From assembly GCF_024502345.1 (NCBI RefSeq), contig NZ_JALDNN010000001.1: 64,000 bases of DNA; one strand, 5' to 3'. The stretch comes from Escherichia coli (GTDB taxonomy: Bacteria; Pseudomonadota; Gammaproteobacteria; Enterobacterales; Enterobacteriaceae). Of this stretch, positions 8,808 to 62,232 are shown piece by piece. The position numbers and the translations under genes are program-made. A model generated the notes under the pieces. It ran no database searches, was not told where the DNA came from, and saw only the letters and a program-made list of their open reading frames with translations. Numbering within the stretch: the stretch's first letter is position 1; each line of letters opens with the position of its first letter.

Positions 8808-8895
8808 AATTTGTAGGCATGATAAGACGCGCCAGCGTCGCATCAGGCATCGGTGCACAACTGCCGGATGCGGCGTAAACGCCTTATCCGTCCTA
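8808..8895. repeat. REP/BIME cluster
   Basis: Same REP units as at 8040-8215, on the other side of rayT. Confidence 0.8.
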
Positions 8896-12089: not shown

Positions 12090-12228
<139 letters not shown>

Positions 12229-17206: not shown

Positions 17207-17719
17207 TCATTGTGATATTTCCATCTCTGTGATTAATACCGGATAAGCATTTAATTGCAGAGTTTGCACGAAATTATCGCAGATAACTGGCAATAACAAT
17301 AACCCATCAGCCCGCTGCTGTAATACCTCCATTCGTTCTACTGATTCAACATTAACAACCAAACCAAGGGCATTTAGCGATTTAAGGATCTCCAGATGTT
17401 CACTCATCCAGCGCAGAGAAAAAGGATCATCCCCAATTATAAAAACAGCCCCCCAGCCGGTTAATAACTGGCGTTTCATTACAGAGCCAGGATGAAGTCG
17501 AGTACATATTACAGGAAATACCCCCTGTTGCGATGGTTCCGATGATGTGGATAATTCAGAAATATTTTCCATTGTTAGTGAAGAATTAACATCCATTAAT
17601 AATGGTGAAACAACCTCACTTTCCTTGCTAGTAATGGCTGCACTAATCTGAAAGGGAAATAACAATATTATTACGTATAAACTCATTTTTAACATAACAC
17701 ATTCAATCCGTTTATTCAT
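17207..17719 (-). CDS. Hypothetical secreted protein (signal peptide), unknown function
   Basis: 170-aa ORF in an AT-rich block; hydrophobic N-terminus MLKMSLYVIILLFPFQISAAITSK; no family recognised. Confidence 0.45.
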   Translation of the reverse strand: MNKRIECVMLKMSLYVIILLFPFQISAAITSKESEVVSPLLMDVNSSLTMENISELSTSSEPSQQGVFPVICTRLHPGSVMKRQLLTGWGAVFIIGDDPFSLRWMSEHLEILKSLNALGLVVNVESVERMEVLQQRADGLLLLPVICDNFVQTLQLNAYPVLITEMEISQ

Positions 17720-17785
17720 GTTATAGAATAATGATGCTATAAATCATCATTAATGTTCAATTATTTAATCACACAATTTGAAAAA

Positions 17786-18289
17786 TCATTGACCAATGTG
17801 AATTGGCAATGTACCACTCAAGTTAAAATCACTGAATATTTTATCAATTTCTCTTGCAGTTTCTATATATTTAACCTCTTTCGTACTTGCATTATAAATA
17901 GCCCAAGCCTCGGGATGGGATGTTCCACCAAACCTTACAAAAAAACTTGATTTCATATTATTATATAAATTAACATCAGGAAAAGGATCTTCTCCAAAAT
18001 TAGTAGTATTGAATAATGAAAGTTCGTATCGCTTAGAAAATTCTGTTGGTAGGATAGCTTCACTGCCATCAATAGCATTCATCCAGAGTTTGTTACCATT
18101 ATATTCCAACAATAATCTCTGTTTTGCATGTGTCTTATCTCGTTCTTTAACGACAGCGAATACCTTTTTAACAACTTGCTGTGCGGATGGTCCTATTGTA
18201 TTACCAAAAGCTGGCAACCCGATTTTGCCATAAACACTCTCCTGAATGAAATAAATATCCGTTTTATCGGCCTCGACAATATCTACCAT
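17786..18289 (-). CDS. Hypothetical protein, unknown function
   Basis: 167-aa ORF in an AT-rich block between the H-repeat fragments; no family recognised. Confidence 0.45.
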   Translation of the reverse strand: MVDIVEADKTDIYFIQESVYGKIGLPAFGNTIGPSAQQVVKKVFAVVKERDKTHAKQRLLLEYNGNKLWMNAIDGSEAILPTEFSKRYELSLFNTTNFGEDPFPDVNLYNNMKSSFFVRFGGTSHPEAWAIYNASTKEVKYIETAREIDKIFSDFNLSGTLPIHIGQ

Positions 18290-18612
18290 TTATCCCTCCA
18301 AACAAGACCTGACTCCAGTACAAGAGCATAGTGTGTAGTAAACACTTCATGCTCTTGCCTTGACCATTGAAATAACAACTTTCGTTTGTTTACTGTACGC
18401 TGTCTAAATAGCTGCGTGGAATAAAGTTGCACTTTTTATCATCCCTTGCAGAGCAAGATTACGAAAGCCCGCCCCCGAAAGGACTGACGCGAGGTAGTCT
18501 CTGTCCGCAGCTGCTTTCACATCTTACATCTTGCCCCTGCCTTGAGTATCTTATCTTTCTTTGAAATATTAATAGCGATGTTCCGTATCCCTGAAAATAA
18601 TTCTGTTGCATT

Positions 18613-19095
18613 TCATCTTCTTATTATAAAGTCGTCTTTATTCATTACCACGTCCAGATGCCAGTGCAATTTATTCTCCACTTGCCAGTGATTTCGGTTC
18701 GCTGTGGCGAACTTCTCTGCGGTTAAATCAGCAGAAATGCTATAATATCTGTCCGTCATTTCTGGCTCTTTCTTTTGTTCTGTTATTATTGAACGAAAGG
18801 AGACTGCCATGCATAATTTCTTCAGCCCTTTTCATTCAAACGTGAAATCAATAAGTTCATCAGGGACATCGCAAATAATATGAAGACGGATTTTAATGAC
18901 ATAAATCGCTCCCTTGCGGCGACTCTTGTCATAAGAGTGCCGAAGCGTTTTTCCATCAATTGCAATGACATCTTTATCATCTGAGGAATGGCAGTCACGC
19001 ATCCAGTTAATAAAGCACTCATGAAATTTTGCAGGACTGATACAGGATACAACTCTGGCAATGATATCGTGAACAGGAATACCATTTTCAAAATC
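18613..19095 (-). pseudogene. H-repeat-associated (ISAs1-family) transposase remnant with internal deletion
   Basis: C-terminal ...[21 protein letters not shown]... (65-aa ORF) plus an upstream copy of the [14 protein letters not shown]... fragment. Confidence 0.65.
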
Positions 19096-19440
19096 ACCAT
19101 ATCACTTCAAAAAATTGGGATGTGTTTCCCCAAATCATCTATATCTTCCCAGCCTTATGCACCAAAAATAACGGCGCAAATAGTTAACAGATAGAATATC
19201 TGGCAATTTATGTTCCACTTTCCAGGCTTGCCTGTAATCGGGGATAATAGAAATATGTTCCATCAATTTTTTAAGTTCCATTTTGTCCCCCTTAATTATG
19301 CAATGAGTATTTGATCATGTATAAGCAATGAAAAACAGCTTTAGGTAATAAGGAACACCTCAATTATTGAACATAAAATGCGAATTATTTAGTACAAAAA
19401 AAACAGCATTACGTGATTTTTCCCTGGGAGTACAGTGTGA

Positions 19441-19490: not shown

Positions 19491-21246
19491 ACTACATGTC
19501 TACATTTTCCCGGTCACCAACCCCTCAATCTTATGAACTTAACCTCGGCTCACCGTTTTCGATTCCATCCAATAAATGACCCGGTTGGATGTGGGCTGAT
19601 CGCCAACAACTTTGCCATCTGCAGAGATTAGCTTCAGCTCTTTATTAGCCTCATCACCGAAGTAAATCATGCGGTAGCGAAAATAACCGCCCCAGGGTTC
19701 ACGTCCACCCAGCGAACTTTGCATAAACCAGGCGCGGGAGTCGTGAACCTGGTCATCATAGAGGGCCAGTAATTCAGCGCATGGCTGAGTACGCGTTCCC
19801 GTTCCCAGTGAATCAATAAAAAATTGTGGATAGAGTCCGTCTCCCATAGCCTTAATTTGCTGATATTCTTTTGCTTCATCATCGCCATTAATCAGATACA
19901 CCGGATATTTAGGAATGACATCCACAAGAATCTGAATGGCTTTCTCCATGACGCTGCCGTTAATATCGCGCGTCCATCCTTTATAATCGCTCTGAAATTC
20001 TCGGGCTGCCTCTCGCAACTGATACTGAGCATTGGTTGGGTCAAGGATAGGAATGCCCTGATTACTTTCATCAAGTGTGCCATTCCCTTTCTGCTTGTTC
20101 GCCCGCTCTTTTTCAATATTTTCCATTTGTTCTTTACGCGCTTTAGCCTCTTTATCAAGTCCATCTTTATCCAGCTGTGGCGCCTTAATATAAAAAGGTT
20201 GCACAAGAAGGCTGTTATTCGCATAGCGACCGATACGCCAGGCGGTGATCCAGCCGATCTGATCGCTAATTGCGCTTTCAAGAACCTGGGCAAGTTGATA
20301 GGAGTGATAACCTTCCCTCGTATCAATCATTTCTTCTGTACCCTGCAAGGTGGTGTTCAGCAGCGTTTGTCGCCAGATGTTGAAGCGTTTTGTTAATGAA
20401 TTAGCAATCGTAAATTCCTTTACGCTAGAAGGACTCATAATTCGCAGAGGCGACACACCTTTTATTAATGGAGTAACAAATTTAGAATAAACAGCAAGTG
20501 GTGCTCCTGAATCAAATGCAGCAAGATACATATCATGCAGTGCTATCTGAGAAAGAATTTCGCCTGAGTCACCACAGGACTTCCCCTGATCGCGAACGGG
20601 ATAGCCACCACCGACATCAGAGTGCATCCCCGGATAGATAATTTCCGTCTGGACGACGGATTGAATCCAGCGGAAAGCACAGCCGCTGCTCATGCGCGGC
20701 AACGAAGTGGCGGCAGCATTTAATCAGGCCGGGAAACTGCCTCTCATCAGGGAGTTGCTGAGTACTATCGGCCCATCCCATATGACCGGCAGCGCCCGGT
20801 AAAACATGCGCCGCCCCCACAGAAGCTACGGTATCCAGCAGCCCCAAAAACTCAATACTGACAGCTAACCCGGCCAGCATCACCTGTTGCTCCTGCGGGC
20901 AAGCTAACTGAGTCAACCAGTTAACAAAAGTTCGTGCTTCCGCTGCGCCACGGGAAAATCCGTAGATAAACAGCTTTACGTTTAGCAGGCGCGGACTGGC
21001 TTGCTCTAACAGTCCCTGTAATTTTTCCAGGTAGGGGTTAATCACATTGCGACGATTCACTTCACCAGTCATAGGCCAGGGAGCGCGCATAAGAGGAATG
21101 TGCTCTTTTGCCACATTATCATCCAGTCGCTTATGGGAAGGGTCAATGGAATAGTTCAGGGCATCCACGAGGCGTAATAATGCCCAATTAATTCGATCTT
21201 CACCACCAGTAGCGAACTCCAGCCCGCTGTTGCTGTAATCCATTTC

Positions 21247-22303
21247 GGCTTTGTTGAATAAATCGAACTTTTGCTGAGTTGAAGGATCAGATCACGTATC
21301 TTCCCGACAACGCAGACCGTTCCGTGGCAAAGCAAAAGTTCAAAATCACCAACTGGCCCACCTACAATAAAGCCCTCATCAACCGTGGCTCCATAACTTT
21401 CTGGCTGGATGATGAAGCTATTCAGGCCTGGTATGAGTCAGCAACACCTTCTTCACGAGGCAGACCTCAGCGCTATTCTGACCTTGCCATCACGACTGTG
21501 CTGGTCATTAAACGCGTATTCAGGCTGACCCTGCGCGCTGCGCAGGGCTTTATTGATTCCATTTTTTCTCTGATGAACGTTCCGCTACGCTGCCCGGATT
21601 ACAGCTGTGTCAGCAGGCGGGCAAAGTCGGTTAATGTCAGTTTCAAAACGCCCACCCGGGGTGAAATCGCACACCTGGTAATTGATTCCACCGGGCTGAA
21701 GGTCTTCGGTGAAGGCGAGTGGAAAGTCAAAAAGCATGGCCAGGAACGCCGCCGTATCTGGCGTAAGCTGCATCTCGCCGTTGACAGTAAAACACATGAA
21801 ATCATCTGCGCTGACCTGTCGCTGAACAACGTTACGGACTCAGAGGCCTTCCCCGGGTTAATCCGGCAAACCCACCGGAAAATCAGGTCAGCCGCCGCCG
21901 ATGGCGCTTACGATACCCGGCTATGTCACGATGAACTGCGGCGTAAGAAAATCAGCGCGCTTATCCCTCCCCGAAAAGGTGCGGGTTACTGGCCCGGTGA
22001 ATATGCAGACCGTAACCGTGCAGTGGCTAATCAGCGAATGACCGGGAGTAATGCGCGGTGGAAATGGACAACAGATTACAACCGTCGCTCGATAGCGGAA
22101 ACGGCGATGTACCGGGTAAAACAGCTGTTCGGGGGTTCACTGACACTGCGTGACTACGATGGTCAGGTTGCAGAGGCTATGGCCCTGGTACGAGCGCTGA
22201 ACAAAATGACGAAAGCAGGTATGCCTGAAAGCGTGCGTATTGCCTGAAAACACAACCCGCTACGGGGGAGACTTACCCGAAATCTGATTTATTCAACAAA
22301 GCC
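21247..22303 (+). mobile_element. IS903-like insertion sequence (IS5 family), 1057 bp
   Basis: Terminal inverted repeats GGCTTTGTTGAATAAATC at both ends; perfect 9-bp target duplication ATCCATTTC at 21238-21246 and 22304-22312. Confidence 0.9.
21279..22247 (+). CDS. IS903-family transposase
   Basis: ORF ...AKQKFKITNWPTYNKALINRGSITFWLDDEAIQAWYES...; true start may be a few codons downstream of the track ATG. Confidence 0.9.
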   Translation: MKDQITYLPDNADRSVAKQKFKITNWPTYNKALINRGSITFWLDDEAIQAWYESATPSSRGRPQRYSDLAITTVLVIKRVFRLTLRAAQGFIDSIFSLMNVPLRCPDYSCVSRRAKSVNVSFKTPTRGEIAHLVIDSTGLKVFGEGEWKVKKHGQERRRIWRKLHLAVDSKTHEIICADLSLNNVTDSEAFPGLIRQTHRKIRSAAADGAYDTRLCHDELRRKKISALIPPRKGAGYWPGEYADRNRAVANQRMTGSNARWKWTTDYNRRSIAETAMYRVKQLFGGSLTLRDYDGQVAEAMALVRALNKMTKAGMPESVRIA

Positions 22304-22659
22304 ATCCATTTCACCTATCTTGGGAAATGGTGTGCCTACACCCGGTATATAGTAGTTAAAATATCCCTGTTCTTCTGCGTTCTGATAGGTCGTATGAAAC
22401 AGTTTGGCAATATTGGTTGGGTGTCCAGGAGTGTCATTATATTCATTATTATTTGTACCATCAAAAAACAGACTAATATGCAGACTTTGATTACACGTAA
22501 AGCCAATTCTAAATCCAGCCTGTTTACTACAGTTGGTTTTGTGCTCTTCTGTTTTATTGATTTGTTTTAGGTAGTTCGCGTTTACCTGCGCTTCAGATAA
22601 TATTAATCGCCCATCTTCAGGGAACAACGGGGGGGCATAACACGGAAAAGCCAGACCAC

Positions 22660-23202
22660 TTATTTTGCTGGACATGTTGCAGGTTCCTTCATCTCGCGGG
22701 GTTCTTTGATAGGATAATTCGGTGTGCCATAGCCCTCGCAGACGGTTGTCACTTTAATCTGATTACACGGCAGAAAATGAACGGTCAGGCCACAACGTTC
22801 AGCGCCGTATTCCGGGATGTCAACAATTACTTTATATTTTTGATAATTTGCAGCATGTTTAGCATAAGCATCTTCTTCATAGCCAAAACCTTCTTTTTTC
22901 ATTGCAATAGGTTCAAGGGGGTTCGGGTCTACTTCCCACTCGATCCGGGCTTTTAATCCAGAATGCCACTTCTTTGGTAACATTATGCAGCAATATCCAC
23001 CGCCCAAACCATGGACCCGATAACCATTTACGGTGAACCAATTAATACTGATACCTTTAATATGATTTATTGCCCGGAGATCACCAGCAGTATAATCGTC
23101 GTAATTAGCTGCTGAGCAACCCGAAATCACCATCAAAATTAACACCAGACAGCCTTTAACTACTTTTGTTATATTCATTCCATTTCTTATTTTGCTGGAC
23201 AT
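22660..23202 (-). CDS. Lipoprotein next to the Tle1 effector gene (possible Tli-type immunity protein)
   Basis: 180-aa ORF with lipobox LILMVISGCSA; sits immediately upstream of the Tle1 fragment; the immunity role is inferred from position only. Confidence 0.5.
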   Translation of the reverse strand: MSSKIRNGMNITKVVKGCLVLILMVISGCSAANYDDYTAGDLRAINHIKGISINWFTVNGYRVHGLGGGYCCIMLPKKWHSGLKARIEWEVDPNPLEPIAMKKEGFGYEEDAYAKHAANYQKYKVIVDIPEYGAERCGLTVHFLPCNQIKVTTVCEGYGTPNYPIKEPREMKEPATCPAK

Positions 23203-23616
23203 GTTGCTGGTTCTTTTACTTTGAGAGATTTTAATTGATGGGTATTGTTTCTACGACAATAAAGTTTTGACAAAGAAGCAAATAAAATGCATATCTTTCG
23301 ATTGTCACACATTGGAATATCGACAGAGCATTGATGATATTACGCAAAATATATTGCAGCCAAGTGAACTGACATTACGATCGAACACAAATGCAACATG
23401 ATGGATACTACCATTACATGTCGAGCTTGATTTTCCGTTTATTTCACGATTATCTCTTGATATTAACAGCTACGGACTTTTAAACAGATAAATCTCCCCG
23501 TACATCACCACAATATTATCCTTCGAAGTCCCGCAAAGCTCCGAAATATTTCGCGTCATTGGCCCTGAAAGCAATATCAAGACAGTGGGCAAAATAGCTT
23601 TCCTGACTGAGTTCAC

Positions 23617-23845
23617 TGTGGGATGCAAATAAAGTTTCATCCTAACCCTAAAAACAGAGAGAAACGTCGCGCGCTCTCCTATTCATAAAAAATCCCTTTT
23701 ATATCAGTATGTTGTGAGCACTTACACCCGAGACTGGATCGTTTTGCCTTTCATGGGAGAATGATTAAGGGCGCTAAAGTATCATCCTAATTTTCGCCCA
23801 GGCTCGAAAAATACGGTAAATGGTGAAAATAAAGATTCATCCTTT
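23617..23845. repeat. Tn7-like left end with three spaced TnsB-binding-type repeats
   Basis: ATAAAGTTTCATCC (about 23626), TAAAGTATCATCC (about 23776), ATAAAGATTCATCC (about 23829). Confidence 0.7.
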
Positions 23846-53562: not shown

Positions 53563-55216
53563 TCACGCATACCTGCTTGAAAACTCGTCCATCGAATTAG
53601 ATACCGTAAAATTCACCTCATCACCCAGTGCTTCAAAATGTGCATAACCACATTTTATTTTGGCATTTTCCTCCGGACGTCGTTCCACCGAGAAAAGCGT
53701 GCTTTTGGTTTCGACAACGAAATAGAGCTTTTCTTTTCCGTCCTTTTCGATCAGCACCGCCCAGTCGGGGTTGTAACCGCCTAATGGGGTATCGATTTTG
53801 AACCAACTAGGGAGTTTGGCGTAAAGTTTGATATCCTCGTTTCGCTCGAAGGCCGAGGCGAATTCCAATTCGATATCAGAGTCGTAAACCACGTGGTCGA
53901 AGACGGACTTCGTCATACCAGCGGTAGTTGGCGACCTTGTCGATAAAAAACAGGCTCAGCACCTTAATGCCCTGTGGGCGCAGGCGCATTTCTTTATCGA
54001 GATGCTCTTCAATGGTTTTGCGGATCTGCAGGCGTTTAAATTCATCCGGATCAACTTCTCCCAAGGCCTGACCCAGTTTCAGAATATCGGGCTTACTGGT
54101 AAAGCTGATGTATTCATTGCCCTGTTCGCAGTAGATGTCATCAATAATGTAGCCGTCATATACATCGCGGCCACCGCTGTACCTGGCATCCAGCAAATCC
54201 GCTCCGCTGGTCACCGTGACTTCCTTGCGCTTAATGCTGCCATTCTTCAGGCGAGCATCAATTTCGATTTTGGCACTGATCGGGCTTTTTTTATTGTTCA
54301 CACTGACCAGCTTGATAAAGGCCTTATTGTGGCCGTCCTTAACCTCAATGCCTGCCACTTCAATCTGCTTAACCAGTTTTTGCTCGTAGGCATCAACTGA
54401 ATCAAGCTTGTAGAGCATATGGTGCTTTTCCACATGGGTAGCTGAATAACGCAGTGTACACATGGGATTAAGCGAGGCGATGGCCTCTTTACTCTTATCT
54501 GTGGTGTCAACACTCTGCGGCTCATCGACAATCACAATTGGGTTGGTTTGCTGGATAAATTCGATCGGCTTGGCACCGGTCATCCGGTCGTGTGCCCGGT
54601 GAATGATGTTGGCTTTGTTCTCTTGCTCCGGGTCGCTAAAGCTTTTCCGGAAGGCATCGATATTGATGACCATGATCTGAATGTCAGGGCTGGTCGCAAA
54701 GTTACGCACATCCGACAGCTTACTGGAATCGTAGGTGAAATAGTCGAAGGCAACGTTTTCGTACAGCTCTTTAAAATGAGTCGCCGTAATTTCCAGTGAC
54801 TTCTGCACTCCTTCTTTAATGGCGATGGACGGCACCACGATAATAAACTTGGTAAAGCCATAGAGCCGGTTCATTTCGAAAACTGTACGCAGGTAAACAT
54901 AGGTTTTACCCGTTCCGGTTTCCATTTCCACGGTTAAGTGAATGCCGTATTTCGAGTCAAATGACTCTGACGGCGCGAGGCCATTTTTCAGCTGTATTTT
55001 GCGGATATTGGCATGGATGTCTTCATCCAGCAGGCGTAGGCGGTTACCAATACCCAGGGTATCTTCCTGAATACCATGAAACAGCGAGCCTTCTTCCCAG
55101 GAATGCAGCGGTGCTACCGTAAAGTTGGTCTGGCAGATTTCCTGGCCGGCGAATACGCCCGTTACTGACTCAATCGCATCACGCTGATAGCCAAGGTGAT
55201 AGCTGTAACTCTTCAA
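53563..55216 (-). pseudogene. Type III restriction Res-like helicase/endonuclease, frameshifted and internally deleted
   Basis: 446-aa ORF with helicase motif I (EMETGTGKTYVY), IVIVDEPQ and KVLSLFFIDKVANYR, overlapping a 117-aa ORF with a PD-(D/E)xK-like core (GGYNPDWAVLIEKDG...LYFVVETKS); the expected C-terminal helicase motifs are missing. Confidence 0.65.
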
Positions 55217-55700
55217 TGACCCACTTTGCTTGATCCGCTCTGTTTATGCGCTTGTCCGCCAGGCAGATAGCCAGTTGTTCTTTGTCGTGTTGTTTTTCGC
55301 GTACGTTTGAATCCGAATCGCCAGTGCCCTCTGTGCCTTTGTTTTCAGCGTGCACAAAGAAAATTACTAATGGGTAAGGTATCGCCCTGTTGATCAGCTG
55401 ACCAATTCGTTCTGCGCTTTTGGTATTGCTTAATTCCACGTGCAGAAAGGCCAGCTCACCATAGTCGCGCAGGTCGTCACTAAAAGGCGCGATATTGATG
55501 GTGCTGGGCTTTAGGGTGTAGAGCCAACGGATTTTATCAACATCGTCCTTCAGAGCCTTTTTGTCTTTAGCGTCCAGGTCGGCGTGCTCCTGAAACATCT
55601 TTTTGAACAGGGGCTTATTGAGCACACAGCTATTGGGCACGTTCAAGCCTTCCAGAAAGGCTTCGAATTGTGGCAAGCCTAACCTCATATCAGACATCAC
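55179..55700 (-). CDS. Hypothetical protein coupled upstream of the Res-like gene
   Basis: 173-aa ORF whose stop overlaps the Res-like start; no family recognised with confidence. Confidence 0.45.
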   Translation of the reverse strand: MMSDMRLGLPQFEAFLEGLNVPNSCVLNKPLFKKMFQEHADLDAKDKKALKDDVDKIRWLYTLKPSTINIAPFSDDLRDYGELAFLHVELSNTKSAERIGQLINRAIPYPLVIFFVHAENKGTEGTGDSDSNVREKQHDKEQLAICLADKRINRADQAKWVIEELQLSPWLSA

Positions 55701-56337
55701 GCTCTCCTTGACCTTCTGTTCCCTGAGTAACGGCTGTCAATATCAGGTAGGACACCACCATAAAGTCTTCAATGCCCTGACTGGAGGTGGCGGTAAGTAC
55801 AGTACCGCCTTTGGCAAACAGGCTTTCAATGCCTTTTTCTTCGCTCTTCCCGGCAATGCTATCTACAGCGACAGCTAATAGGTGCTGAAAGTGGCTCATA
55901 TCACACCCGTGGCGTGTCATGCGGTTAACTTCGGTGATGGCGGGTTGATCGGGCACTTTGTGCTTAAAGGCTTCACGCTTGAGCAGATCGAGTATCTTTT
56001 TACTTTGGGTGAAGTTCAGCTCAACTACAGTGCTGCCTTCGGCATCAGCGGTCACGTAGATCAGGAAGTAAGGTGCCAGCGGGTAATTATCATCTACCTG
56101 AACCGCTTCTTTACCGCTGCGGATATTCTTCAGGCAGAAGATGACGCCGGGTTTGATGCCATCGGCGACCATATCTTCGTCAATGCTGACGGCGGCATAC
56201 AGGCCTAGCGGTGTTTGCTCCAGCGTTGCGAGACGGGCCTTATCGTTCATGTAGCCTGACAGATCCATGCGGAAGTCATTGAGGGTAAGGTCGGTAATGG
56301 ATACCGGATGGGGCGTGGAGGATATGGTAGCAACCAT
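55690..56337 (-). CDS. Hypothetical protein, first gene of the Res-like module, possibly 5'-truncated
   Basis: ORF overlaps the start of the 173-aa gene; the upstream in-frame extension runs into unrelated GC-rich DNA and no convincing RBS precedes Met at 56337. Confidence 0.4.
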   Translation of the reverse strand: MVATISSTPHPVSITDLTLNDFRMDLSGYMNDKARLATLEQTPLGLYAAVSIDEDMVADGIKPGVIFCLKNIRSGKEAVQVDDNYPLAPYFLIYVTADAEGSTVVELNFTQSKKILDLLKREAFKHKVPDQPAITEVNRMTRHGCDMSHFQHLLAVAVDSIAGKSEEKGIESLFAKGGTVLTATSSQGIEDFMVVSYLILTAVTQGTEGQGERDV

Positions 56338-56835
56338 GATGCGCTGTCTGCCGGACCGCGCCACCAGCCCAGTAGCGACACAGTTGCACGGGAGGCTCTG
56401 CACGGAGCCGGTAAAGTCGCAGGCCCGTGACGGCTTCGGTGAGGCGGTGGGGCGGGTGTTCGATACGGCAGAGTCATCGTCATTCCTGCCTGCGCCGCTG
56501 AAGACGGTGATACGTACCGTGCGTGATGCGGTGGTGTCTGTAGCCCGCGCGGTCTGGGACTGGATCTTCTTCTGAATGAGTAAAAGGTCATCAGCGTTGT
56601 AGTGGATGGCTCTGTTTATTCACAGCCTGGTGGATGATTATTTTAAAGCAGACACAACCTGTCCTGACCAGCAAAAGATATCACCAGTCATAAGCGCGTC
56701 ACCACTGCCGACGTTGCATCCACGCAGTCTTCTCGCGCCAGGCGTTTCGCTACGTATCACGGACATAACCTGTCAGTCTCATCCTTTACAGTAATACCTT
56801 CTTAATTAATCAATTACCAAACACGGAGATAATAC

Positions 56836-57159
56836 ATGTCTCAGACTGAGCGTCGTTATGACCGCCTGTCTGTCCGGCTTTCTCTGATTATCAGCCGTCT
56901 GCTCGCGGGTGAAACGCTGAATATGCGCAAACTGGCCGCTGAGTTTGGCGTCTCGGAGCGTACCCGCCAGCAGTCAGCGGCTGTGGCGTCACAATACACC
57001 AACGTTGCTACAGAGGATGACCAGAACACACATTTTCGCCTGGTGGTCCGGGATACCGACGGCAGGATGCACTGGCGGGCCAGGAACTTTGAGCCGGAGG
57101 CGGGTTACTGGCTGAACCGCTATCTCACCAGCGATGGCATTCGCAGAGCCACAACGTAA
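56836..57159 (+). CDS. Hypothetical protein with a helix-turn-helix-like N-terminus
   Basis: 107-aa ORF ...[29 protein letters not shown]...; possibly a fragment. Confidence 0.35.
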
Positions 57160-62155: not shown

Positions 62156-62232
62156 TGGCGGAACGGACGGGACTCGAACCCGCGACCCCCTGCGTGACAG
62201 GCAGGTATTCTAACCGACTGAACTACCGCTCC
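62156..62232 (-). tRNA. aspV: tRNA-Asp (anticodon GUC)
   Basis: Reverse complement reads GGAGCGGTAGTTCAGTCGGTTAGAATACCTGCCTGTCACGCAGGGGGTCGCGGGTTCGAGTCCCGTCCGTTCCGCCA (77 nt with CCA). Confidence 0.97.

Follow-up and report, generated by a model that had tools for sequence, protein, structure and literature searches.

[quoted passage not shown] How was the effector gene broken, where is the secretion system that it would have served, and is the surviving neighbor an orphan immunity gene kept after effector loss, as an earlier note on this DNA had proposed? We consider the locus, with a probability of about 0.9, to be the decayed distal end of the type VI secretion cluster of the E. coli aspV island.

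The tle1 pseudogene as a whole (19539–22675, minus strand; Tle1-family T6SS phospholipase effector, PA3290 type) is broken by a copy of IS903B and by a 23-bp deletion. The DUF2235 signatures were said to be divided among three open reading frames, and all three frames were found: ORF 22289–22675 (128 aa) bears FFDGTNNN, ORF 20617–21243 (208 aa) bears GFSRGAAEARTF and ORF 19539–20702 (387 aa) bears HSDVGGGY. The corresponding segments of tle1 all lie on the minus strand. The N-terminal segment (22304–22675, codons 1–124) has FFDGTNNN at residues 70–77 and, as an ORF, reads on into IS903B to 22289. The middle segment (20641–21246, codons 122–321) contains GFSRG (Ser219) and the DTVA aspartate (Asp259), and its out-of-frame tail stops at 20617. 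The C-terminal segment (19539–20640) contains HSDVGGGY (His337) and the PF22137 domain, in a frame that differs from that of the middle segment.

The insertion is exactly the 1057 bp of IS903B (IS5 family; 21247–22303, plus strand), at the place where an IS903-like element with a target duplication had been noticed. It has 18-bp perfect terminal inverted repeats (GGCTTTGTTGAATAAATC) and is flanked by two identical 9-bp direct repeats, ATCCATTTC (left copy 21238–21246, right copy 22304–22312); the chance of an exact 9-bp duplication is about 4e-6. The element is 99.5–99.8% identical to copies annotated as 'IS5-like element IS903B' on many plasmids. Its transposase ORF (21279–22247) is apparently intact and was matched end to end by an IS5-family model (357 bits). 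With the same length, repeats, 9-bp target duplication and single transposase as IS903/IS903B, it is an ordinary copy, and the only one in the window. The duplicated ATCCATTTC equals three codons of tle1 (E-M-D, codons 122–124), and therefore the reading frame resumes in phase across the element, as the earlier note had read it. Taking out IS903B together with one duplicate in silico and retranslating rejoined the tle1 frame.

The second change of frame, previously placed near 20620–20700, is a single 23-bp deletion between 20640 and 20641 when compared with an intact orthologue. In the intact allele the 10-bp direct repeat GATAATTTCC occurs twice, at a distance of 23 bp; here a sole copy remains as the scar (20637–20646). 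The deletion removed codons 322–329 and shifted the frame. It is a microhomology deletion and not a point indel. All 24 full-length orthologues among the matches listed span 1731 bp, compared with 1708 bp here. The residues encoded by the 23 bp align to real residues of Pseudomonas Tle1 (4O5P), and the 23 bp are therefore ancestral.

When both lesions were mended in silico, tle1 encoded a protein of 697 aa. It differs from the intact E. coli orthologue WP_164476073.1 at 3 of 2094 nt (99.86% nucleotide identity) and at 3 aa, so that none of the three substitutions is synonymous. Pfam searches of the repaired protein found PF22137 (Tle1 C-terminal; E 7e-57) and, in two stretches, PF09994 (DUF2235/Tle1 catalytic; E 1e-13 and 1e-8); NCBIfam models matched it with no family. 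Residues 12–677 align with Pseudomonas aeruginosa Tle1 (PDB 4O5P) at E 2.7e-117, which bears out the suspected DUF2235/Tle1 membership. The motifs GFSRG (217–221), LLDTVA (Asp259) and HSDVGGGY (His337) are identical in 4O5P, and the numbering of the Ser-Asp-His triad in the repaired protein follows this alignment. The locus is a pseudogene of the Tle1 family without an uninterrupted coding sequence, and not a functional member.

The enteroaggregative (EAEC) Sci-1 Tle1 was rejected as the identity of the effector, since the match to 6SJL_D was only E 6e-7. The EAEC Sci-1 Tle1/Tli1 pair (6SJL / 6SKI, with Tle1 bound directly to VgrG1) likewise consists of a DUF2235/Tle1-family antibacterial phospholipase and a lipoprotein immunity partner, but this Tle1 is a distant relative, aligning over about 140 residues. 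EAEC Tle1 binds the C-terminal extension of VgrG1 directly and is loaded in this way, without a DUF4123 adaptor; it belongs to a different T6SS cluster. Judged by its homology, the effector studied here is of the PA3290/DUF4123-adaptor type and not the EAEC Sci-1 type.

The lipoprotein gene upstream of tle1 is intact, as had been claimed: tli1a (22660–23202, minus strand) encodes 180 aa of the Tli1a (DUF3304) family of immunity lipoproteins. Its product scored 201.6 bits with the NCBIfam model NF053804, 'Tli1a family immunity protein', over profile positions 1–155 of 155 (curated cutoff, 110 bits), and PF11745 is on record for an identical product. A lipobox, ISG/C in the context LILMVISG/CSAAN, can be read in the sequence; it places Ser at +2 of Cys29, with no Lol-avoidance Asp. 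The stop of tli1a overlaps the start of tle1 by 16 nt, and the two genes adjoin likewise in all orthologous loci inspected. Two orthologues each differ from the protein at 2 aa, and the gene has 5 nt differences from that of PapRG-04-4, three of them synonymous. It now stands without its upstream operon. A promoter scan of the upstream region gave only weak 9-of-12 matches, in numbers no higher than shuffled sequence gives (6, versus 3.6 ± 1.9), and the same scan found no terminators there.

What remains of the rest of the cluster is very little. As the earlier note had stated, the window contains no T6SS structural genes: 20 T6SS proteins, used as tblastn queries, matched just ClpK, a ClpV paralogue, and a remnant of a DUF4123 adaptor, and vgrG, hcp and tss were all absent. 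The whole yafV-aspV island falls within the window, and no T6SS core genes occur between yafV and tRNA-Asp. The remnant (23519–23616, minus strand) comprises the last 33 codons of tla1, an adaptor/chaperone gene (tblastn, residues 222–254 of 254, 97% identity). Its orthologues are named 'tla1: toxin Tle1 chaperone Tla1' in RefSeq, and its identity is also backed by synteny with MS1170 and PapRG-04-4. In MS1170 the locus runs tle1, three copies of tli1a, DUF4123, vgrG, hcp, tssBCEFG and onward.

Here, the last 33 codons of tla1 adjoin the left end of a Tn7-like transposon instead (23617–52626; left end TGTGGGATGC, right end GCATCCCACA). This 29-kb element has tnsABCDE at its right, and its cargo is the heat-resistance island tLST (tLST/LHR stress-tolerance island). 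It is 99.7–99.95% identical, end to end, to the element of G3/10. The tns genes and termini of the TGT...ACA type are present and the 5-bp target duplication is absent, the flanks being TTCAC and CATTT. Elsewhere the same element has 5-bp duplications, CCAGT in G3/10 and CATTT in C 236-04A, and RX24 has a full T6SS cluster together with an empty CATTT site. The hybrid flanks suggest that the left end was rearranged later. Judging from these junctions, the absence of T6SS genes is explained by a deletion of the entire cluster up to the left terminus of the Tn7-like tLST element.

We also looked for an intermediate in which the Tn7-like element interrupts tla1 (right end, then TTCAC and the rest of tla1). 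Among 5426 complete E. coli genomes, none joined the two parts of a 125-bp chimeric junction query, and the same junction pattern had no exact match in JGI metagenome contigs. Such an intermediate, had one turned up, would have spoken for a pair of insertions and subsequent recombination rather than for an adjacent deletion. On the other side of the locus, downstream of tle1, are decayed fragments of an ISAs1-family transposase (18613–19281, minus strand), which occupy this place in all related loci. Four further deletions were seen in the defense genes next door. An Rfam scan of the whole window at gathering thresholds returned nothing in the region.

The roles of Tle1, Tli1a and Tla1 were established by experiments in P. 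aeruginosa (PMC13133936) and are assigned to the E. coli proteins by homology. There, Tli1a binds Tle1, and according to the authors, co-produced immunity proteins failed to counteract Tle1 toxicity (PMC13133936). The vgrG4a island of P. aeruginosa comprises Tle1 (PA3290), Tli1a (PA3291), Tla1 (PA3293, DUF4123) and VgrG4a. Its effector family, with GxSxG and Ser-Asp-His kept, and its immunity family (NF053804 / DUF3304) are the same as here, and the order vgrG, DUF4123, tli1a array, tle1 is common to the intact E. coli relatives. The effectors differ in length (697 aa in E. coli versus 882–884 aa in Pseudomonas), and the alignment stops near Pseudomonas residue 708. Unlike the vgrG4a island, the locus studied here has a double pseudogene for an effector and 33 codons for a chaperone, and vgrG and the T6SS have been deleted. 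The literature that we searched contained no experiments on the E. coli Tle1 module, whose orthologues already bear the names tla1 and tli1a in RefSeq.

In the intact relatives, the operon reads vgrG, tla1, one to three tli1a and then tle1. Tla1 would load the spike protein VgrG with the phospholipase Tle1, and the T6SS would fire Tle1 into the periplasm of a neighbor, where the Ser-Asp-His lipase domain would degrade membrane phospholipids. Tli1a, an outer-membrane lipoprotein, would bind Tle1 in the periplasm and so shield the producer and its kin. Three events, probably in the order given here, shaped the locus. The T6SS was lost in a deletion that extended from within tla1 precisely to the left terminus of the Tn7-like element and took away vgrG, hcp and every tss core gene. 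IS903B inserted at codons 122–124 of tle1, duplicating 9 bp, and a slippage-type event between the two GATAATTTCC repeats removed 23 bp. The insertion parts the DGTNN motif from Ser219, and the 23-bp deletion parts Ser219 and Asp259 from His337. Because no fragment has the full active site and neither chaperone nor apparatus is left, the effector is dead. Only tli1a, of the members of the module, is left intact; its product, if made, would serve as orphan immunity against strains of E. coli armed with Tle1.

The same allele, with its junctions, occurs in independent samples, in ten contigs from metagenome assemblies (99.2–100% identity). The IS junctions are reproduced in all ten, and the 23-bp deletion and the Tn7-like junction recur in every contig that spans them. 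The left IS junction and the 23-bp deletion lie within six of the contigs; five of these are 99.9–100% identical without gaps, and one is 99.2% identical with two gap openings. The remaining four contain the right IS junction together with tli1a, three of them reaching across the Tn7-like junction as well. Since the allele recurs in these ten contigs, it represents a real lineage. No complete E. coli genome in the collection searched has the exact locus, the best place covering 75%, that is, all but the IS. With the tLST query, matches in complete E. coli genomes begin only at the transposon end. Of the complete E. coli genomes, about 1.3% have this tle1.

That the lesions are artefacts of assembly or sequencing, or that the 23 bp were inserted in other strains, is extremely improbable. 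Beyond the a priori possibility, nothing speaks for either. The metagenome contigs effectively rule out an assembly artefact, and a loss of 23 bp between 10-bp repeats is untypical of sequencing error. An insertion elsewhere is effectively ruled out by the 24 orthologues among the matches listed, all of which contain the 23 bp, and by the alignment of the encoded residues to P. aeruginosa Tle1. With the lesions taken as real, the question becomes why tli1a is whole. The earlier proposal of an orphan immunity gene kept after effector loss stands insofar as tli1a is intact and the effector is lost, but keeping by selection does not follow from this, because recent neutral decay predicts the same intactness. 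We lean, with some confidence, towards tli1a being a neutral passenger that so far has not been hit, in a module that is a dying remnant without present function. Pseudogenization seems to be very recent (three substitutions in 2094 nt), tli1a is a small target of 543 bp, and there is decay all around it, in the ISAs1 fragments, the truncated tla1 and the deletions in the adjacent defense genes. Nothing speaks directly against neutral persistence, although the present data fit a selection model equally.

It is possible, but on balance unlikely, that selection actively keeps tli1a as an orphan immunity gene that guards the disarmed lineage from Tle1-firing E. coli. The gene is whole while its neighbors tle1 and tla1 are both destroyed, the three metagenome contigs that include its full length all have it intact, and the synonymous share of nucleotide differences is three of five for tli1a (versus PapRG-04-4) and none of three for tle1. 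However, these counts are far too few for a dN/dS test of tli1a, and the neutral chance that both lesions fall in tle1 is about 0.63 (tle1 and tli1a together are 2637 bp). The identity of tle1 to the intact allele also leaves little time for decay, the operon promoter of tli1a is gone with no convincing local promoter, and the rarity of tle1 among complete E. coli genomes implies that exposure may be rare. Orphan T6SS immunity genes are documented in other bacteria: the arrays of Vibrio cholerae, the acquired interbacterial defense clusters of Bacteroidales and the immunity islet of Salmonella Typhi show the same survival of immunity genes that lack a working cognate effector, and such genes could give protection when others attack. 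Compared with those systems, tli1a is a lone gene that very recent decay has spared where it stood, not an accumulated or mobilized array, and its protection is hypothetical. Any expression or selective retention of tli1a would have to be supposed.

A wider scenario seems doubtful to us. A widespread gut E. coli lineage that had gained, on the Tn7-like element, the tLST island for tolerance of heat and chlorine would have lost its whole aspV-island T6SS by a deletion ending exactly at the left terminus of the transposon; the useless Tle1 would then have decayed, and an expressed Tli1a would have been kept as a shield that works by itself against E. coli armed with Tle1. This would amount to disarmament mediated by a transposon end, together with a selectively retained orphan immunity gene.

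The finding itself is ordinary, and RefSeq already has it annotated. The proper annotation is a tle1 pseudogene (broken by IS903B and the 23-bp deletion) with a whole tli1a and the remnant of tla1, in a strain that has lost its aspV-island T6SS. The IS, deletion and Tn7-like junctions can be used as lineage markers. Of more interest is a by-product, the tLST-carrying Tn7-like transposon, whose left end is the endpoint of the T6SS deletion. For the biology of these effectors, the locus is a tidy, datable case of a T6SS effector module decaying after loss of the apparatus, with the immunity gene outlasting the toxin, and it bears on whether disarmed strains keep their shields.

The gene tle1 (19539-22675, minus strand) is a pseudogene in the window. 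Its motifs are spread over three minus-strand ORFs, as the earlier note had described: FFDGTNNN in 22289-22675, GFSRGAAEARTF in 20617-21243 and HSDVGGGY in 19539-20702. The IS903 element was also placed exactly by that note, together with its 9-bp duplication. This IS903B copy, the only one within the window, occupies 21247-22303 (1057 bp) and has terminal inverted repeats that are perfect over 18 bp (GGCTTTGTTGAATAAATC). Its flanks are two identical copies of the direct repeat ATCCATTTC (21238-21246 and 22304-22312), which corresponds to tle1 codons 122-124 (E-M-D). The ORF at 21279-22247 matched the entire profile of an IS5-family transposase model (357 bits), and many plasmid copies labelled 'IS5-like element IS903B' showed 99.5-99.8% identity to the element.

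A frameshift had been proposed in addition, and alignment located it as a 23-bp deletion. The nearest complete-genome match was E. coli PapRG-04-4 (99.0% identity, with all except the IS covered). There, a DUF3304 protein gene precedes the gene of WP_164476073.1, a 697-aa 'T6SS phospholipase effector Tle1-like catalytic domain-containing protein'. Aligned with this locus, the IS-excised sequence had a single gap: 23 bp (ATTTCCTCTGCATTTAAAGGATA, plus strand) were absent between 20640 and 20641, which takes out codons 322-329. In the intact allele, two copies of GATAATTTCC, 23 bp apart, enclose the missing piece, and one copy is left in the window (20637-20646). Such a loss between repeats is a signature of slippage or microhomology deletion. 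Orthologues span 1731 bp in 24 of the 24 listed full-length E. coli cases, compared with 1708 bp in the window, and the residues encoded by the 23 bp (..PLNAEEII..) pair with residues of the P. aeruginosa protein. Restoring the segment also opens the frame, and together these three lines show the 23 bp to be ancestral. When the IS and one duplicate copy were removed in silico and the 23 bp put back, tle1 encoded a 697-aa product with zero stop codons, and its three nucleotide differences from the WP_164476073.1 gene gave three amino acid changes (V17L, M65L and S152N).

The repaired protein proved to be a DUF2235/Tle1 protein, as had been predicted. It matched PF09994 (Tle1-like catalytic domain, formerly DUF2235) and PF22137 (Tle1-like C-terminal domain, E 7e-57). 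Its residues 12-677 aligned with P. aeruginosa Tle1 of known structure (4O5P, E 2.7e-117), and GFSRG, DTVA and HSDVGGGY are shared, whereas similarity to EAEC Sci-1 Tle1 (6SJL_D) was only remote (E 6e-7). The E. coli module and the P. aeruginosa vgrG4a, tla1, tli1a, tle1 island are related at the level of orthologues, and RefSeq already uses the names Tle1-like, tli1a and tla1 for the E. coli genes. IS903B lies between the DGTNN motif and Ser219, the deletion parts Ser219 and Asp259 from His337, and none of the fragments holds the complete triad.

An assembly or sequencing artefact was ruled out by the same configuration in ENA metagenome contigs. Nine metagenome-assembly contigs are on record with the exact 208-aa middle fragment, and seven with an exact copy of the 128-aa ORF that fuses the N-terminal part to the IS. 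Ten retrieved contigs were collinear with the window, nine of them with 99.8-100% identity and L009 with 99.2%. From inside IS903B, six of the ten extend over the left IS junction and past the 23-bp deletion, and five of these six are gap-free. The remaining four lead from the right end of the IS over tli1a, and three of these pass the left junction of the Tn7-like element. Since the same junctions occur in contigs from several samples, the configuration represents a real lineage. It was not found among 5426 complete E. coli genomes.

The neighboring lipoprotein gene (22660-23202, minus strand) was searched against Tli-type immunity families and matched the full profile of NCBIfam NF053804, 'Tli1a family immunity protein', at 201.6 bits (cutoff 110). 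Its lipobox is ISG|C (Cys29, Ser at +2), and it differs from the PapRG-04-4 and MS1170 orthologues by 5 nt (2 aa) and 6 nt (2 aa), respectively. Tle1 immunity partners are DUF3304 lipoproteins in P. aeruginosa, B. thailandensis, K. pneumoniae and V. cholerae; P. aeruginosa Tli1a is located at the outer membrane and binds Tle1, and the DUF4123 protein Tla1 bridges Tle1 and VgrG4a (PMC13133936). The number of tli1a copies varies, with one in the window and PapRG-04-4, two in many strains and three in MS1170 (one frameshifted). All gene junctions of the array, tli1a/tle1 included, share a repeat some 30 nt long in which stop and start overlap by 16 nt (22659-22690 and 23177-23213 in the window; 17336-18955 in MS1170, L003), and both genes start with MSSKI. 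The repeats look like a built-in recombination substrate for array expansion and contraction.

The earlier note saw here an orphan immunity gene kept after effector loss. The intact Tli1a-family gene stands, but 'kept' is weaker. Retention by selection would fit the intact frame, yet it seems rather doubtful. The decay of tle1 is recent, because only 3 substitutions separate its 2094 nt from the intact allele. If two disruptive events struck tle1 and tli1a (2637 bp together) at random, both would fall in tle1 with a probability of (2094/2637)^2, about 0.63. The upstream operon of tli1a is gone, and promoter-like matches upstream of it showed no excess over shuffled sequence. In addition, tle1 of this type is uncommon, being present in 70 of the 5426 complete genomes (tli1a in 68). 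We therefore favor tli1a as a neutral passenger, with a probability of roughly 0.6.

No T6SS structural genes had been noticed in the window, and a tblastn search with 20 T6SS proteins likewise gave nothing beyond ClpK (a ClpV paralogue in the tLST) and the tla1 remnant (23519-23616, minus strand). As the window reaches tRNA-Asp (62156-62232) and then dnaQ/rnhA, the whole island is visible. In MS1170 the order is yafV, an ISAs1 remnant, a PFL_4695 ICE protein, a hypothetical gene, an ISAs1 pseudogene, tle1, three tli1a, DUF4123, vgrG, hcp, tssB, C, E, F, G, tagH, tssJ, K, L and so on. From the backbone (dinB, lafU, yafL, fadE, ivy, yafV) the window stays collinear with this arrangement until 33 codons before the DUF4123 gene ends. 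The backbone also had two naRNA4 matches (REP-derived nucleoid-associated RNA) over the Rfam gathering score, near rayT/yafL and lpcA/fadE (8816-8893 and 12145-12222, minus strand). Downstream of tle1, amid ISAs1 remnants, a 170-aa PFL_4695-family integrating-conjugative-element protein and an uncharacterised 167-aa ORF lacking an NCBIfam match (17207-18289, minus strand) keep the same place in all related E. coli loci inspected. PapRG-04-4, the closest strain with intact tle1, has IS100 inside the ISAs1 pseudogene immediately downstream (L001 9537-11338), and its upstream vgrG region is rearranged and partly decayed (a vgrG fragment, an M35 peptidase, a second vgrG and a PAAR gene). Across several lineages, this distal part of the T6SS cluster seems to be a hotspot of IS traffic.

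The side finding of most interest is the 29-kb Tn7-like element that adjoins the tla1 remnant (23617-52626; left end TGTGGGATGC..., right end ...GCATCCCACA; TGTGGG...CCCACA). It has tnsABCDE at the right, and its cargo is the whole heat- and stress-tolerance island tLST/LHR, including clpK, sHSP20-GI, yfdX1/2, hdeD-GI, trx-GI, kefB-like, psiE, htpX and degP-like genes. An IS21-family element sits inside it. Tn7 elements flanking tLST have been noted, with the data called scarce (PMC8290217). Over its full length, the window element shares 99.7-99.95% identity with that of strain G3/10. Clean 5-bp duplications bound the same element at two other chromosomal positions: CCAGT in G3/10, which carries it elsewhere in its chromosome, and CATTT in C 236-04A, which carries it in the aspV-side integrative island. 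RX24 has an empty site with a single CATTT and a complete T6SS cluster between this site and tle1. The window flanks are hybrid: TTCAC, which is tla1 sequence, at the left and CATTT, as in C 236-04A, at the right. In the simplest history, the element would have inserted at CATTT. Afterwards, everything from within tla1 to the exact left terminus would have been lost, either by deletion or by recombination between the element and another copy of it. This loss would have taken vgrG, hcp, all tss genes, ykfM and the integrase of the island, 32 kb or more when compared with RX24.

A 56-aa chimeric ORF (23470-23640, minus strand) starts in the left end of the element (MKLYLHPT...) and continues into the last 33 tla1 codons; transcription exiting the transposon end would therefore head towards tli1a. 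Beside the transposon, 53908-56965 has four separate internal deletions when compared with C 236-04A (L005), of about 1.4, 2.4, 4.5 and 2.3 kb, with 2-5 bp of overlap at each junction. The type III restriction-modification genes res and mod are truncated or fused by these losses, as are the DUF4391, helicase, GTPase and WYL genes. A defence island thus holds another patch of microhomology-type decay.

The tle1 pseudogene, the family assignments and the T6SS loss are all directly supported, and the overall reading of the earlier note was right. Pseudogenisation by IS is well documented, as are orphan T6SS immunity genes; everything at this locus is of known kinds, and the finding is ordinary. 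The deletion that disarmed the strain ends at the left terminus of the Tn7-like element.
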